Positions 42,871 to 48,703 of a DNA stretch of 64,000 bases are shown here, one piece after another. Source of the DNA: Escherichia coli. GTDB taxonomy: Bacteria; Pseudomonadota; Gammaproteobacteria; Enterobacterales; Enterobacteriaceae. Under the pieces are notes generated by a model. The model made no database searches, was not told where the DNA came from, and was given only the letters and a program-made list of their open reading frames with translations. Each line of letters starts with the position of its first letter. Position 1 is the stretch's first letter. Both the position numbers and the translations under genes were made by a program. The stretch lies in assembly GCF_024298765.1 (NCBI RefSeq), contig NZ_CP101210.1; one strand, given 5' to 3'.

Positions 42871-42909
42871 AATTGTGCAAATTTGTGCACTATTGTGCAT
42901 TTGTATAGT
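42871..42909 (+). promoter_or_regulatory. Iterated TTGTGCA repeats and candidate -10 (TATAGT) upstream of the cargo operon
   Basis: aaTTGTGCAaatTTGTGCActaTTGTGCAtttgTATAGTg: three copies at about 10-11 bp spacing followed by a -10-like hexamer. Confidence 0.4.
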
Positions 42910-42978
42910 GAAAAAAATATAGCAGAAAGTATACTTAGCGCCTTGTGGGCTACGTTAACTTTGCAGGAACATTTGGAA

Positions 42979-44358
42979 ATGAAAAAAATCAATAAAGAAG
43001 ATTCTAAAAGAACCTTTTTACGTGGATGGTTGCGATTTCTTCGTAGCGTTGAGAGAGCTAAGAAAAAAAAGCCTGCGCAAGAGAAAAATGGTAGTCTTCG
43101 TTTTTCCGATGAAACAACTCCTGTCCAAAACCAAGTCGCTACGTTCATTGAAAATATATCGATTATAAAAGAGTATGACTCATCAATTCTTCGTCGTGAC
43201 GCAGAGAAGATATTAATACCTAAATATTTTGACTTATATGACAATCCAGAGAAATCTCTGCTATTTATTAGTGCAGCCACAAAATTAATTGCAAGAGGTA
43301 AATGGAAATCATATATTTTTGATTACAAGAAAAACAAAAAACACTGTCTTGGTCTTGAGTGTCTATTAGGTGTTGCTCTTACAGCAGCAAGGCAAAGTAA
43401 TATAAATTTCAAAGATACGATGATTCAGATTAATGGTATCTACCCTAAAGATGAACAGTATCTTGAAATTATCAGGGATGTCGGGCTTGTAAAAGAGATT
43501 AGTAATGCTGCACCAGGTAAAGTTCTGGACTCTACTGAAGCATCGAAAAAAGCGAATCCGAAGAAACGAATCTTCTCTGCTGATAGTATCGGAAAGGAGA
43601 ATGCTTCTGCCTTTGCCCATGACAGAAAAAATGTCACTGCTGAAAAATTTACCGCATACATAAACGAATGCTTAAATGATCATAATTTAAAACTTGTACA
43701 TGAGGCAGAAAAGCATTTAACTTCCTGCATGGGGGAACTCCTTGATAATGCGGAGCGGCATTGTGGGTTAGAGCAACGCCCACGCTGGTATTTGAGAGGT
43801 TTTGTTAATAATAACGTACGAAACCCCATATGTGAGTTGGCTGTTTTCAATTTTGGGAAAACTATCAGCGAAACTTTTGATAATTTACCTGAGGATCATT
43901 TTTCATTAAGTCAACAAGTTAATCCATACATAAATAAGCATATTAAGAAAAAGGGTATGTTTAAGGAAGGATTAACAACAGTAGCGGCCTTGCAAGGGCG
44001 GGTGAGTTGTAAAAACGAGAAAGAAACTGACAGTTCTGGCACCGGAACAATTGAATTATTGAAGTTATTTCAAGATATGCATGATAATCTTAAAAAAATG
44101 GGAAGAGATATTAAAGGTGGGATAAAAATGACTTTAATATCTGGTAGTACTCATATTAACTTTGATGGATCATATAAATTAAAGCAAAGGTTGGTTAATG
44201 ACGAGGAAAGTGACATTTTTACTTACCCTTTTAATGATGTAGGGCTTGAATCTGAACCGGATCGCAACTATCTTAAGCGTATGAAGGATGCTCGATTTCC
44301 TGGAGTTATGATCAATATTCGTTTTCCTCTACCAGAAAACGCCACCCAGCGAACTTGA
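42979..44358 (+). CDS. Hypothetical protein with C-terminal GHKL-type (histidine kinase/SpoIIAB-like) ATPase domain; candidate defence gene A
   Basis: N-box-like ELLDNAERH, G-box-like DSSGTGTIELL, terminal GG...G...FPLP typical of HATPase_c; AT-rich; RBS AGGAAC before ATG 42979 (ORF finder starts at 42883). Confidence 0.55.
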   Translation: MKKINKEDSKRTFLRGWLRFLRSVERAKKKKPAQEKNGSLRFSDETTPVQNQVATFIENISIIKEYDSSILRRDAEKILIPKYFDLYDNPEKSLLFISAATKLIARGKWKSYIFDYKKNKKHCLGLECLLGVALTAARQSNINFKDTMIQINGIYPKDEQYLEIIRDVGLVKEISNAAPGKVLDSTEASKKANPKKRIFSADSIGKENASAFAHDRKNVTAEKFTAYINECLNDHNLKLVHEAEKHLTSCMGELLDNAERHCGLEQRPRWYLRGFVNNNVRNPICELAVFNFGKTISETFDNLPEDHFSLSQQVNPYINKHIKKKGMFKEGLTTVAALQGRVSCKNEKETDSSGTGTIELLKLFQDMHDNLKKMGRDIKGGIKMTLISGSTHINFDGSYKLKQRLVNDEESDIFTYPFNDVGLESEPDRNYLKRMKDARFPGVMINIRFPLPENATQRT

Positions 44359-44368
44359 GGACAGGTAC

Positions 44369-44713
44369 ATGAAAATGGCTGACATCACCATAGATTTCAA
44401 TAAGTTAGTAAAAGATAGTAACAAGAAACTTTTTGCTGGACGTTCTAATGGGCGCCAGGCCTATGATTACTTTAATATAGGGAAATTTTGCACAACCAGT
44501 AATGATAGATTATATCTATTGATCCCCAAGGGAATTGTTGTATCAAGCTCATACTTTCTAGGTATGCTTGAAACGGTTTTGCCGAAATTTTCTTCGCCTA
44601 GCGAATTTTATAGTCGCACTGTACTTGATGGTCGTGAATATAAAGAAGGTATGCTTTCTGAATTAGATAGAGCTGTAAGGAGAGGCTTACATAAAAATGT
44701 TCCCTTCTTTTAA
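44369..44713 (+). CDS. Small protein, possibly STAS/anti-sigma-antagonist-like; candidate defence gene B
   Basis: 114 aa immediately after the ATPase gene; IVVSSSYFLGMLE resembles the STAS core; very tentative. Confidence 0.4.
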   Translation: MKMADITIDFNKLVKDSNKKLFAGRSNGRQAYDYFNIGKFCTTSNDRLYLLIPKGIVVSSSYFLGMLETVLPKFSSPSEFYSRTVLDGREYKEGMLSELDRAVRRGLHKNVPFF

Positions 44714-45506
44714 AAATATTTTTCAAATCAAAATGACAGCGCTGTCTGTCATTTTTTTTATATTCCCCGCAGCTTGCTCTGTGACAGATTTTTCCAATAA
44801 AGAAAACATTGAATGTAATGAGTCACTTTATCCAAACACGCCTTTTTATATTTCCGATTCAGGACTTAGTGGTATATCATCACCGTTTTTGTTATCCGGA
44901 AACCCGAATGATGGCTTGATGTTTTGTGAAAAGGCAAACGACACCTTTCATAAGTTATCTCTGGCAAGGGATAACAAAAAAGATTTATTTACTAATTATT
45001 TCAAAGATGTTCCAAATTCCTATGATATATATAATATTGTAAAGGTTCCGGAAAATGGTCCAGAGTGGATTTCTATTGGCATCTCTTTATTTGCTTTAGT
45101 TTCATCCTTTGTTATTCCTTGTGTTCAACATAGAAAAGAACGTAAAGAAGCTATTAATGAAGGGTATTGGGTAAGAGAAGTAATTATGCCTAAAATTAAT
45201 GGGTTGGCATTCGATGTTGTGCAAAGTTTTAAAAACTCCATGGCATTATCAGAAGAGGAGTTTCTTAGTGTATTCAGTAATACTCTTTTACCAAAACTAG
45301 GAGAGTTACGGGATTCATTATATTTGTTTAATAGTTTTCCAGAATTAAATGCAGATATTGAAAATCTAGAAAGTATTTGTGACTCCTTGGAGGAAGAAGT
45401 TTCCAATCATATAGACTCGCCTAATGAAATAAGAATTTCTGATATATCAATGTTTCATTCCAAATTAATACAGAAATTAATTTTACTTCATAAGAAGATA
45501 GGTTGA
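44697..45506 (+). CDS. Membrane-anchored protein; candidate defence gene C (possible effector)
   Basis: Overlaps gene B by 17 nt; hydrophobic N-terminus (MTALSVIFFIFPAACS) and a central TM helix (WISIGISLFALVSSFVIPCV). Confidence 0.45.
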   Translation: MFPSFKNIFQIKMTALSVIFFIFPAACSVTDFSNKENIECNESLYPNTPFYISDSGLSGISSPFLLSGNPNDGLMFCEKANDTFHKLSLARDNKKDLFTNYFKDVPNSYDIYNIVKVPENGPEWISIGISLFALVSSFVIPCVQHRKERKEAINEGYWVREVIMPKINGLAFDVVQSFKNSMALSEEEFLSVFSNTLLPKLGELRDSLYLFNSFPELNADIENLESICDSLEEEVSNHIDSPNEIRISDISMFHSKLIQKLILLHKKIG

Positions 45507-45551: not shown

Positions 45552-48317
45552 CTATCGTGTTCGATGCAATAAACTGATTTTTTTGCGAGCATGTTTAGTG
45601 GTTTCACTGATTCTCTGTGCGTGCTCTGCGTCGCGGATGGCGCGCAGCATGTCAGAAAGTACGGTAACGGGTGTTTTCATGGTGTTCTGGTCTTGCTGAA
45701 GTGTGGATGCCAGGCGTGCGGCGGCTTCAGGGTCTGATGCCTCTAGTTGTTCCAGATAGCTGGCGACCGGGTTATGGCGGATCTCCGTGCTGCTTACGCC
45801 GTGATTACGACTCAGGCGTTGCCAGAGCTGCGTGATTCGGCTGTCCGGGCGGGTATCCTGTTTGCGTACAATTTCAAATCCCTGCGGTGCAATGATGCTG
45901 CCGCCAACGTACAGACTGCCGCCTCGTAACAGGTGCTGCATCTGCTGTTCACCGATATGCAGGCCGAGAGATTCAGCAGACTCCCGCCATTCTTTAGCGA
46001 GTAACTCGTGGTTATCAGGCAAAGGCTGTGGCTGTTTGCGGCTCTGTGTCCAGTTCTGCATTTCATCACTGCTGTTTTTTGCCTGTTTGTCACGCAGCGA
46101 ACGCATCAGTGCCCGGCGTTCGTGCCGTTTCAGTGAGCGCATCCATTCATTCACGTCAACGCCTTCAGGAAGCCGCGGCCACGGTGCTGGCCGTTCTTCC
46201 GGCTGTTCTGTCCCGTTGTTGTCCGTTTCCTGTACACGGGGACAGTTATTGCCACGAGTCCAAGGGGCGGCAGGGCCGCCCTGAAGGTCAAAACCATTTT
46301 CGCGGGCGCTGTCTTCCGTTTCCGGTTTACGTCTTACCAGTTTCCAGTTATCCGGATGCGTGCACACACGGGAGGATTCCCCGATGAGTGGTGACCAGAT
46401 CCCGTAAATCTGTACGCTCTGTTCGCCGTAATCATTCAGCTCATCTGCGAGGTCGTAGGCGGTGCGAATCAGGTAGTCTTTGCGTGGAACAAGTACGCCG
46501 CCCTGTTTTTCAATGTAGGTGGCAAAACACCCGGCATCGGCGGCAGCGAGTACCGCATCCATTGCGTCATCTTTCAGTCGTTGCGGGCCTTCCGGGTTGC
46601 GTGCCATCTGGCTGGCAAGGCGGCGCAGTTCACGCCACACCTGACGGGAGGGGATGCCAAAGAACTGGAACTGGCGGACCCGATGAAGGCGCGCCCAGCC
46701 GATGGCGCGCTCCACACTCTCGGCCATTGATTTTCCGGTTTCGTGGTCAACGCGTGGCTTGCCCGTTTTCGGGTCGATGCCATCCACGGCGCGGCTGTCC
46801 AGGTTCTTTCCGATGTAGGTCGCGATATAGCTGGTTGGTGTGCCTTTTGAGCCGTCGACATACTCCGCCTTAAAGCGCGGAGTAATATCATTGCCCAGCT
46901 CGTGGCGGTCTTCCTGAATGGCAATATCGCGGGTGATGGCCACGATGCTGTCGATTTCTTCCGGATGAGCAAAGACCATCATATGCCAGTGCACGGTGCC
47001 GTCATGGTGAGGCTCCACCGTGCGGATGCCATACCAGCGAAGACCGTCGCGGTTCAGTTTTTTGCGGACCGCCGCAAAAAACGTGTTAACCAGGTAATCG
47101 CTGGAGTCGCGCATGGTGGCCCCGTTCCATTTGGGATTCGGATGACCGTTCTCTGTTGTGGCGTGGTATTTTGACGGGCAGGTGACAGTCAGAAACACCG
47201 CTTTGTCGCCACGGGCTTCGGCCAGAAGTTCCAGCCCCTTCATGGTGGCCATCATTTCTGCCTTACGGTGAACCGGGTTACTTACTCCCGCGTAATACAC
47301 CGTCTCGAGATCAATCGTGAACCCGTCTTCGTTTTCCAGCATGAAACTTTTCAGGAAATCGCGTGTTTTCTCGCGCTGTGCGCGAAACTCGCTTAACGCG
47401 TCCTGGCTCAAATAGGGCGATGTTTTTCTGGAAACCAGACAGGCGGCGCGGAGTTGTTCTTCTCTCCACTCGCAACGTAACAGCCACAGTTTGCGTTTCC
47501 ACCATTCCGCACAGGTCAGGCGAAGGATTGCGCCCGGCAGCAGTTCTGTGTCCGGTTCGTTCCTCCGGTCTTTGTCTGTTGTCAGTGCGTCATAATGCGG
47601 AGGCATGGCGTGCAAGTGTAACGCCATGCGGGCCAGCATCTGATACGCCTTCAGCGTTACATCCATGGTCAGCTCGCCATCGGTCGCGCCAAAACCATCG
47701 CAGAGTTTTTCGAAGGTGCTGCTGAACATCGCCGCCGTCATGGTGGCCAGCGTCTGTATCTGGTGTTTGTTGAGTTGCGGCAGGTAAAGCAAATCGTCCA
47801 GGCGTTCACGTCCGGCAAGGGACCGATAACCCGGTGTCAGCCAACGGCTGTCGGTGCGGTCCAGACGTACGAATATTTTGCGCAGGGTTCCGCGCGCGTA
47901 GCGTTCAGCCTGCCAGCTCTTTTTGCCTTTCTGACGATCGGATTCCTGTTTTTTGCGCAGGAAAGAGAGGTGGCGGCTCAGAGGTTCACGCAGATAAACG
48001 GGAAGCACCTTCAGTGTGGCAAAAGCACGGGCCACCGGGTCTTGTTCTGTTGCCTGACGCTTGCTGATGATGCTTTGTGCCAGCTTTTCACGCTGTCCGG
48101 CTTCCTCAAGGGATGCCATGAGTTTTTTACCCACGGTGGATTGTGCGAAAAAGGCTTCCTCCTTCGCTTCCTGTTCTTTCCGGGCCTTTTTGTCCGCCTC
48201 AAGGTAGTAACGGATGGCGCGTTGCAGCTCGGTTTCAGTTTCCTGCCTGCGCTCCGTAAATCTGTCCGGATCAATGGCTGGCCGTGGTTCATTCCAGCTC
48301 CATGCAAACTCACTCAT
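45552..48317 (-). CDS. Replication initiation protein gpA (rolling-circle endonuclease), with extended C-terminus
   Basis: About 921 aa; start MSEFAWSWNEPRP overlaps the upstream ORF stop (ATGA); longer than the ~760 aa I recall for P2 A. Confidence 0.8.
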   Translation of the reverse strand: MSEFAWSWNEPRPAIDPDRFTERRQETETELQRAIRYYLEADKKARKEQEAKEEAFFAQSTVGKKLMASLEEAGQREKLAQSIISKRQATEQDPVARAFATLKVLPVYLREPLSRHLSFLRKKQESDRQKGKKSWQAERYARGTLRKIFVRLDRTDSRWLTPGYRSLAGRERLDDLLYLPQLNKHQIQTLATMTAAMFSSTFEKLCDGFGATDGELTMDVTLKAYQMLARMALHLHAMPPHYDALTTDKDRRNEPDTELLPGAILRLTCAEWWKRKLWLLRCEWREEQLRAACLVSRKTSPYLSQDALSEFRAQREKTRDFLKSFMLENEDGFTIDLETVYYAGVSNPVHRKAEMMATMKGLELLAEARGDKAVFLTVTCPSKYHATTENGHPNPKWNGATMRDSSDYLVNTFFAAVRKKLNRDGLRWYGIRTVEPHHDGTVHWHMMVFAHPEEIDSIVAITRDIAIQEDRHELGNDITPRFKAEYVDGSKGTPTSYIATYIGKNLDSRAVDGIDPKTGKPRVDHETGKSMAESVERAIGWARLHRVRQFQFFGIPSRQVWRELRRLASQMARNPEGPQRLKDDAMDAVLAAADAGCFATYIEKQGGVLVPRKDYLIRTAYDLADELNDYGEQSVQIYGIWSPLIGESSRVCTHPDNWKLVRRKPETEDSARENGFDLQGGPAAPWTRGNNCPRVQETDNNGTEQPEERPAPWPRLPEGVDVNEWMRSLKRHERRALMRSLRDKQAKNSSDEMQNWTQSRKQPQPLPDNHELLAKEWRESAESLGLHIGEQQMQHLLRGGSLYVGGSIIAPQGFEIVRKQDTRPDSRITQLWQRLSRNHGVSSTEIRHNPVASYLEQLEASDPEAAARLASTLQQDQNTMKTPVTVLSDMLRAIRDAEHAQRISETTKHARKKISLLHRTR

Positions 48318-48703
48318 GGCTGGTATCCCGTCACGCGCTGCCACTCCTGCGAGAAGAGGGTGGAAAGGCGGTTAAATTCAGCGGTGTATTCACTCAGCGA
48401 GGCACACCCGCCAGCAGTGTGATGCGCCAGCATTGCCGCAAATACGGAGGTCGGGGAGTCGTAATACGCCAGCAGTGATTCGCCATGCGGTGTCAGGCAG
48501 CGCAACGCCAGCCCGTGTGGTGTTAAGTCCACGCGGTAGCAGTCGTCTACTGTGAAATAAAGGGTGTCTGCATTCTCCGGTTTTGTAGTGCGTGCTCTGT
48601 TGTCACGACTACGGATGTAGAGATCAAATAATCCCTGAAGAACGGGAGCCAGACGGGTGTCCTGTGTGCGCACCCATCTTGTGAAGTCATGAGCGTCAAT
48701 CAT
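48314..48703 (-). CDS. Hypothetical early-region protein, translationally coupled to gpA
   Basis: 129-aa ORF whose stop overlaps the A start. Confidence 0.45.
   Translation of the reverse strand: MIDAHDFTRWVRTQDTRLAPVLQGLFDLYIRSRDNRARTTKPENADTLYFTVDDCYRVDLTPHGLALRCLTPHGESLLAYYDSPTSVFAAMLAHHTAGGCASLSEYTAEFNRLSTLFSQEWQRVTGYQP

Follow-up and report, generated by a model that had tools for sequence, protein, structure and literature searches.

The post-origin tail of a P88-like gpA replication endonuclease in Escherichia coli

Is the A-like replication protein of an E. coli prophage, which is 160 aa longer than P2 A (761 aa) and 227 aa longer than 186 A (694 aa), the product of a fusion, or is its length normal for its lineage? 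The gene lies in a 64,000-nucleotide stretch of E. coli DNA, here called the window, and the original prediction saw in the extra residues an added domain or a fused accessory protein. We conclude, with a probability of roughly 0.85, that this is an ordinary P88-like gpA with an accessory tail and not a novel fusion.

The gpA gene, its catalytic core and the predicted origin

The gene, the open reading frame upstream of it and the elements of its core are the following:

45552..48317, minus strand: gpA (replication endonuclease) coding sequence, 921 aa plus stop (open reading frame list, Pfam, PHROG, PhiR44_2 match)
48314..48703, minus strand: upstream open reading frame of 129 aa, its stop overlapping the gpA start as ATGA (open reading frame list)
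46791..47765, minus strand: Phage_GPA catalytic domain, aa 185-509 (Pfam match)
46983-46991, minus strand: HUH motif H443-W-H445
46815-46829, minus strand: tyrosine pair Y497/Y501
46242..46271, minus strand: predicted ori core inside gpA, codons 683-692, AAPWTRGNNC (DNA alignment with P2 and 186)

The protein has 921 aa, as originally estimated, and belongs to the Phage_GPA family, with the start codon in the open reading frame list being the ATG at 48317; a GTG start at 48344, giving a 930-aa product, finds no support in homologue annotations. The Pfam match (PF05840, aa 185-509) runs over profile positions 1-321 of 321 with E=3e-131 and 437.7 bits against a cut-off of 31.4, and the protein is matched by PHROG 91, ‘nicking at origin of replication’ (E=3.8e-269), as well as by phrog_6857. 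The annotations of PhiR44_2 and E. coli O111:H8 8E show the same ATGA overlap with the upstream open reading frame, and in phage 186, according to its annotation, A cannot be translated unless the upstream orf84 is translated. The overlap in the window is consistent with translational coupling between gpA and the 129-aa open reading frame.

Biochemical work on P2 A established two active-site tyrosines spaced Y-x-x-x-Y. Aligned with P2 A and 186 A, the window protein has both its HUH motif and its tyrosine pair in invariant columns. Judged from its sequence, the window gpA is a two-tyrosine HUH rolling-circle initiator of the P2 type and a predicted nickase.

The annotations of P2 and 186 place the origin within gene A, and the gpA of these phages nicks this origin in its own gene; the equivalent, predicted origin DNA of the window encodes aa 683-692. 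Here the block CAATAACTGT is invariant across the window, P2 and 186, and alignment to the annotated nick sites of P2 (29892) and 186 (28576) predicts, from sequence only, a nick at or beside 46261, flanked by GCCCCTTG / GACTCG in the window and GCGCCTCG / GAGTCC in P2 (the slash marking the nick). The same predicted nick region encodes the conserved NNC motif of gpA, whose Cys (C692 in the window) is kept in 88 of 94 gpA relatives. We also observed a 25-nt imperfect direct repeat with one copy on either side of the predicted nick (46214-46238 and 46307-46331).

Distribution of the extra length and anatomy of the tail

Outside the catalytic core and the predicted origin, the protein can be divided as follows:

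47784..48317, minus strand: N-terminal region, aa 1-178, with about 52 aa more than P2 A (landmark mapping, alignment)
45555..46241, minus strand: post-ori C-terminal tail, aa 693-921, 229 aa (landmark mapping; covered by PHROG profiles)
46044..46154, minus strand: basic helix, aa 722-758 (tail alignment; AlphaFold2 (AF2) helices at model residues 50-86, pLDDT ~85-89)
45858..46010, minus strand: conserved small module of two helices and three strands, aa 770-820 (alignments of 31-35 diverse tails; AF2 pLDDT 84-95)
45555..45842, minus strand: helical extension, aa 826-921 (phmmer of the tail against relatives, alignment, AF2)
45555..45596, minus strand: last 14 codons (KHARKKISLLHRTR), the ‘short-end’ allele (DNA alignment)

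To assign the excess to parts of the protein, we mapped three landmarks, L179, H443 and C692 of the window, to residues 127, 399 and 626 in P2 A and 133, 386 and 617 in 186 A. Over P2 A, the length of which had been given correctly as roughly 760 aa, the window gpA gains 52 aa ahead of the core, 14 aa within it and 94 aa past C692, the tail measuring 229 aa in the window, 135 aa in P2 and 77 aa in 186. The roughly 150-aa C-terminal extension of the original prediction is thus real as extra C-terminal sequence, but in the comparison with P2 A only 94 of the 160 aa are C-terminal and about 40% of the excess lies elsewhere; it is against 186 A that the tail is longer by 152 aa, out of 227 aa in total. 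Furthermore, the stretch from C692 to the small module is 78 aa in both the window and P2, so that the C-terminal excess over P2 lies wholly distal to the module, at aa ~819-921. At the other end, E. coli copies of gpA carry different alleles of the first ~107 aa: P88 and O157 copies differ there from the window protein, and copies of the O157/P88 type align to the window gene from nt 322 on only (query 42-2445).

The post-ori tails of 94 gpA relatives are 2-310 aa long (median 78). The window tail taken alone matches the gpA profiles phrog_6857 (3.8e-93) and phrog_91 (5.9e-15). Its modules recur across 23-35 diverse gpAs, P2 A included. The basic helix carries a motif, L-K-R-H-E-R-R-A-L-M-R-S-L-R, common to 186 A (in the form RRERRELTNRLRKKK) and many relatives. 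The small module, with the motif A-x-x-x-G-[LI]-x(8)-L-x-x-G-x-x-[VL]-x-x-x-G, occurs at aa ~705-750 of P2 A and also in most long-tailed gpAs; 186 A lacks it. Within the extension, the helix at aa 826-839 is widely shared among gpA relatives, phmmer searches with the tail find aa 838-866 in relatives at ~37-50% identity, and aa ~867-921 are restricted to the P88-like group; the final predicted helix spans 38 residues (aa 883-920). AF2 predicts the module and the helices with confidence, but with only 23-35 input sequences and a pTM of 0.39-0.44 the arrangement of these elements relative to each other is unreliable.

The post-ori tail evolves under purifying selection. Its dN/dS is 0.14-0.18 against three close relatives, with 0.06-0.08 for aa 821-907 and an overall range of 0.06-0.27, values drawn from a small number of substitutions (23-27 per comparison for the tail) and from relatives two of which share one tail allele. 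As dS in the tail (0.10-0.13) is close to that in the core (0.12-0.14) while dN/dS is low, the constraint acts at the protein level.

Searches of Pfam, NCBIfam and PDB sequences with the full protein and with the last 229 aa returned nothing besides Phage_GPA, and sub-threshold matches of the tail to ‘Death’ and ‘RBM39linker’ were dismissed as noise. Of the proposed added domain, what stands is an added region, partly restricted to a sub-lineage (aa ~838-921); a known domain was not found there.

Closest relatives, alternative ends and spread

The closest known systems show the same organisation. The gpA of PhiR44_2 (XSB42701.1, 946 aa) is 97% identical to the window protein over aa 1-917, and both PhiR44_2 and P88 (Xuanwuvirus P88; replication endonuclease YP_009113059.1, 940 aa) have the early-operon synteny, tail modules and helical extension of the window. 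Close gpAs are 940 aa in P88 and E. coli O157:H7, 946 aa in PhiR44_2 and O111:H8 and 915 aa in WS1933D, and the DNA of the region is 94-95% identical to P88, 520873 and Chuche. P2-like A proteins that are as long or longer and keep the C-terminus therefore exist, an outcome that the original prediction had named as refuting it. It is close to certain that the window gpA is the normal full-length initiator of a P88-like, P2-type E. coli prophage (Xuanwuvirus, Peduoviridae). The protein is already known, being routinely annotated as ‘replication endonuclease’, and its length is the norm for the genus.

More distant relatives share the plan in part. P2 A (NP_046795.1), 32% identical to the window protein, likewise has a Phage_GPA HUH domain, two tyrosines, an in-gene ori nick motif and the small module, but it lacks the ~52 N-terminal aa and stops 11 aa past the module, whereas the window gpA runs on for ~100 aa of helices. 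186 A (NP_052289.1) has 36% identity in the core, the ori motif, the basic motif and the coupling to an upstream open reading frame, but its tail contains neither the small module nor the helical extension. Long gpAs from metagenome and genome representatives with 34-39% identity to the window protein (P0024, 868 aa; P0030, 841 aa; P0032, 943 aa; P0058, 844 aa) have tails of 185-310 aa that include, as in the window, the basic helix, the module and an ‘LWxRL’ helix; P0024 and P0030 also have aa 838-866, but the distal tails of all four are unrelated to window aa 867-921.

The very end of the gene exists in different alleles. Most relatives, P88 and PhiR44_2 among them, carry a different end of 39 codons (the 946/940-aa forms, with a tail of 254 aa) in place of the 14 codons of the window, whose end is 25 aa shorter. 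This short end is not unique to the window, since WS1933D has the same gene end followed by the same downstream island. The island, a query for which matched 22 complete E. coli genomes at a coverage of at least 80%, consists of three low-GC genes 3' of gpA, where P88 and PhiR44_2 carry a ParM/partition cassette. The 3' end of the gpA gene sits at a cargo-exchange junction. In RMDEC332 the tail DNA has been swapped wholesale right after the origin motif.

Possible roles and origins of the tail

Everything past the origin would be an accessory tail free to vary in length within the family, in which two ancestral elements that P2 A has as well, the basic helix and the small module, are followed by the ~100-aa helical extension. 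As many family members end 2-4 residues past the origin motif, the tail is probably dispensable for catalysis. Our literature searches found no paper treating the gpA C-terminus, the P88 paper naming the replicase only within a phylogenetic tree (PMC5285337), and no experiment or database annotation gives the tail a function. For the small module and the extension there is no fold, Pfam or PDB match, and it is from the architecture alone that we infer, tentatively, an adaptor arm for contacts with DNA or partners, in which the long terminal helix might serve protein-protein contact. Such an arm could, for instance, keep gpA on its own DNA (cis action) or engage host replication factors. More doubtful is a broader version, in which the tail would be a modular adaptor shuffled by recombination, the module and the lineage-specific helices would set partner or host specificity, and the ori nick site would be a breakpoint for swapping tails and cargo; such an adaptor might recruit a helicase, serve cis action or help to maintain P88-like elements with ParM/ParR as episomes.

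One could also see in the small module a winged-helix or excisionase-like domain that reads origin-flanking DNA and sets origin specificity. Its order of two helices and three strands and its motif resemble, as a pattern only, proteins with a helix-turn-helix (HTH) and a wing, and single members give weak sub-threshold Pfam matches (HTH_Tnp_IS1 0.0016, HTH_19 0.009, HTH_3 0.019). However, in Pfam scans of 35 members each family that matched did so in a single member only, a comparison by hhalign with the small HTH protein of the prophage itself gives a probability of 2%, and profile searches of the module against PDB sequences lend no support to an excisionase or HTH identity. The net charge of the module is moreover not positive, so that binding of duplex DNA is not favoured. 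We consider such a domain unlikely.

An origin of aa ~838-921, or at least ~867-921, in a formerly independent accessory gene downstream, whose fusion to gpA then became fixed among P88-like elements, would fit the restriction of homologues of the last ~55 aa to the P88-like group and the position of the gene end at a cargo-exchange junction. Furthermore, small open reading frames with ATGA-type overlaps follow A elsewhere (Orf91 in P2, two in RMDEC332), and loss of a stop codon could fuse such frames to gpA. Yet a search of 5.8 billion proteins with the tail (aa 693-921) returned only gpA fragments and no stand-alone homologue, and the tail resembles neither P2 Orf91 (DUF3850, itself unmatched) nor the frames behind the shorter gpA of E. 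coli RMDEC332. Within aa 601-921 no in-frame ATG, GTG or TTG follows a Shine-Dalgarno-like sequence, which also speaks against a nested internal gene as in phiX174 A*, and aa 838-866 continue unbroken into gpAs with 37-50% identity (P0024, P0030, P0010-12). Our findings thus argue against the fused accessory protein that had been proposed, and we regard such an origin as very unlikely.

Least credible of all is that the tail is kept mainly for cis-acting replication DNA beside the origin, with the protein as incidental read-through: the origin within gene A of P2 and 186, the same motif within the window gene and the direct repeat around the predicted nick would agree with this, but short repeats in two copies often arise by chance, dS in the tail reaches the level of the core with non-synonymous change kept low, and relatives exchange tail DNA wholesale just past the origin motif, as in RMDEC332.

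Taken as an ordinary P88-like gpA with an accessory tail, the protein itself is a finding of little weight, this gpA gene being present in roughly one complete E. coli genome in four (1441 of 5426, 1319 of them at a coverage of at least 80%). As a by-product, the analysis marks the part of gpA past the in-gene origin as a hypervariable accretion zone. It also draws attention to the small module, which lies beyond the Pfam Phage_GPA model and to which no structure or function is assigned, not even in P2 A, a well-studied protein; it comes as no surprise, but makes a reasonable target for studies of replication in the P2 family.

The gpA gene, its long relatives and its neighbourhood

An uninterrupted open reading frame runs on the minus strand from 45552 to 48344, and gpA is read within it as follows:

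45552-48317, minus strand, gpA (replication endonuclease), 921 aa from the ATG at 48317
48314-48703, preceding ORF, 129 aa, its stop sharing an ATGA with the gpA start

Annotations of phage PhiR44_2 and of E. coli O111:H8 strain 8E show the same overlap, so the coordinates and length first assigned to the gene are right. Pfam Phage_GPA matches aa 185-509 (E=3e-131; 437.7 bits, cut-off 31.4), PHROG 91 ('nicking at origin of replication') is hit with E=3.8e-269, and the HUH histidines H443 and H445 and the tyrosine pair Y497 and Y501 are invariant when the protein is aligned with the A proteins of P2 and 186. Judged by its sequence it is a gpA-type initiator, most likely the usual replication initiator of a P2-type, P88-like prophage. 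In P2, the A protein uses an active-site tyrosine to nick the DNA site-specifically at an origin within its own gene, and rolling-circle synthesis starts there. By analogy, the window's gpA most likely works in the same way: its tyrosine would nick the in-gene origin and rolling-circle synthesis would follow.

The original prediction had taken the length to be unusual, a view that does not survive comparison, since P2-like A proteins of similar length with a conserved C-terminus exist. Long forms are annotated in phage P88 (type of the genus Xuanwuvirus, Peduoviridae; 940 aa), E. coli O157:H7 (940 aa), O111:H8 8E (946 aa) and WS1933D (915 aa), and the 946-aa protein of PhiR44_2 is 97% identical to the window's over aa 1-917. 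The 12 kb around gpA show 94-95% identity to P88-like phages, the last 199 aa alone match gpA profiles (phrog_6857, 3.8e-93; phrog_91, 5.9e-15), and by megablast 1441 of 5426 complete E. coli genomes contain the gene, 1319 with coverage of no less than 80%. The protein is already catalogued and common.

The common forms exceed the window's gpA by 19-25 aa; in the latter, 14 final codons (KHARKKISLLHRTR) stand in place of 39 codons of most relatives. This short end also occurs in WS1933D, together with the same downstream island:

42883-45506, plus strand, low-GC island of three ORFs, GC 31-39% against about 55% in the flanks

The ORFs encode 491 aa from a TTG start (annotated as 459 aa in WS1933D), 114 aa and 269 aa; none of the three has a Pfam or PADLOC match, and the 22 complete E. 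coli genomes with the island at 80% query coverage or more annotate three hypothetical proteins. P2-like phages have their variable cargo (old/tin in P2) at the corresponding position, and by analogy the island may encode an uncharacterised system for defence or another accessory role. Portal gene and gpA flank it, at the site where a ParM/partition cassette sits in P88, in PhiR44_2 and in most copies from E. coli. In most P88-like copies, genes for ParM and a partition protein come immediately after gpA (loci L004, L005 and L008 among the relatives), whereas in the window's prophage the cassette has been lost or replaced. P88 is among the candidate phage-plasmids, possibly with episomal and integrated states (Pfeifer et al. 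2021, PMC7969092).

Position and plan of the extra length

P2 A, first put at about 760 aa, has 761 aa in its reference record, so that figure was accurate; 186 A has 694 aa. The landmarks L179, H443 and C692 align with positions 127, 399 and 626 of P2 A and with 133, 386 and 617 of 186 A.

Excess length of the window's gpA, by landmark mapping
N-terminal to the conserved core: +52 aa over P2 A, +46 aa over 186 A
inside the core: +14 aa over P2 A, +29 aa over 186 A
tail after C692: +94 aa over P2 A (229 vs 135), +152 aa over 186 A (229 vs 77)
total: +160 aa over P2 A, +227 aa over 186 A

An extension of about 150 aa at the C-terminus, as originally proposed, therefore holds against 186 A and is overstated against P2 A. 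The spacing from C692 to the small module of the tail is 78 aa in both the window's gpA and P2 A, which places the C-terminal excess over P2 A in about 100 aa distal to the module. A second variable segment covers about the first 107 aa (window 47997-48317); in O157:H7/P88-type copies this N-terminal segment is 6 aa shorter, and similarity to the window's gpA begins at aa ~108.

An exhaustive HMMER search found 2514 relatives, and in the 94 of the best 150 where an equivalent of C692 could be mapped, 2-310 residues follow it (median 78, 90th percentile 184). Many family members stop almost exactly at the origin motif, which implies that the tail would be superfluous to the core nicking chemistry.

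Plan of the tail, from an alignment of 23-35 diverse tails
aa 693-719, acidic, proline-rich linker
aa ~726-742, basic helix, L-[ST]-x-x-E-R-R-x-L-x-x-R-L-R, clear in 186 and weak in P2
between basic helix and small module, second linker
aa ~770-820, small module, A-x-x-x-G-[LI]-x(8)-L-x-x-G-x-x-V-x-x-x-G..., present in P2 A (aa ~705-750), absent from 186 A
aa 826-837, helix 'ITQLWQRL', after which many gpAs stop
aa 838-858, segment 'NHGVSSTEIRHNPVASY', shared with relatives of only 37-50% identity (P0024, P0030, P0010-12)
aa ~867-921, distal residues, P88-like group only

A distant relative of 902 aa (P0025) carries two small modules in tandem, …NTGLSPEQIEKLATDGRLDIGAERYF… and …VTGVTTPPEALARRLLAGQPLVLRDERYC…, supporting the module as an independent, duplicable domain.

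Selection, predicted structure and identity of the tail

Where present, the tail is under purifying selection, as a codon-by-codon comparison with three close relatives reveals.

dN/dS along gpA; tail counts are small (23-27 substitutions per comparison), and the O111:H8 and O157:H7 copies have one tail allele in common, so that two of the tail comparisons depend on each other
whole tail, aa 693-907: dN/dS 0.14-0.18, dS 0.10-0.13
aa 693-820: dN/dS 0.24-0.27, dS 0.09-0.10
aa 821-907: dN/dS 0.06-0.08, dS 0.12-0.18
core, aa 179-692: dN/dS 0.03-0.07, dS 0.12-0.14 (O157 and PhiR44_2 only; the O111:H8 core is nearly identical to the window's, with one synonymous difference)

Because dS in the tail is about that of the core, it is the amino-acid sequence, rather than the DNA, that is constrained, and a cis-acting DNA role for the tail is much less likely than a role as protein.

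In AlphaFold2 models of aa 673-921 and 765-921, aa 722-758 are predicted to form a helix and aa 770-820 a unit of two helices and three strands, modelled with confidence (pLDDT 84-95). Further helices span aa 826-839, 850-861 and 863-876, and the protein ends in one of 38 residues, aa 883-920 (pLDDT 81-92). With an overall pTM of only 0.39-0.44, the mutual packing of these elements is unreliable. A likeness of the small module to excisionase-type HTH proteins had no support from hhalign (probability 2%). A winged-helix domain conferring origin specificity would offer the module a DNA-binding role, and we consider this much less likely.

The tail had also been suspected to be a fused accessory protein. 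It has no sequence match in Pfam, NCBIfam or the PDB, a tail-only search of 5.8 billion proteins returned gpA fragments only, and it resembles neither P2 Orf91 nor either of two small ORFs located after the gene for an 830-aa gpA in E. coli RMDEC332. Within the tail, no in-frame start follows a Shine-Dalgarno sequence, and a nested gene was rejected on that ground. Together these results leave no evidence for a fused accessory or nested gene, and an ancient fusion for the last ~55 aa is considered much less likely.

The predicted in-gene origin and a possible exchange of tails

C692 closes an 'NNC' motif, N690-N691-C692 (window 46242-46250; codons AAT AAC TGT), within the DNA block CAATAACTGT. 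The block is invariant among the window, PhiR44_2, P2 and 186, and the nick sites annotated in P2 (29892) and 186 (28576) lie a short way upstream of it. By alignment, the nick in the window is predicted at or adjoining 46261, in codon 686. The origin thus appears to lie inside the gpA gene, as in P2 and 186, the tail being all that is translated downstream of it. Of the 94 mapped relatives, 88 have Cys at the position of C692, among them proteins that end 2-4 residues later; this conservation may be owed to the protein, to the origin DNA or to both. The predicted nick is flanked by an imperfect direct repeat of 25 nt (46214-46238 and 46307-46331; 76% identity, 93 nt apart), possibly by chance.

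The best explanation of the tail is a modular accessory arm that is dispensable in many relatives. Our best guess, with a chance of roughly 30%, is that the basic helix and small module would contact DNA or a replication partner, the helical extension making a lineage-specific protein contact.

Homology breakpoints cluster at or shortly past the predicted origin (window ~46174-46271; gene nt ~2050-2144) in a few genomes. DNA identity to the RMDEC332 gpA is 0.89 up to gene nt ~2100, immediately past the origin, and 0.35 beyond it, and the window differs from O111:H8 8E by 2 mismatches in nt 1-2143 and by 24 in nt 2144-2725. In these few genomes the pattern suggests that tails may be exchanged by recombination near the nick site. 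The two shifts also hint, doubtful as we hold the idea to be, that the post-origin tail would be a recombination-shuffled adaptor for partner specificity, with the origin itself as the swap point.
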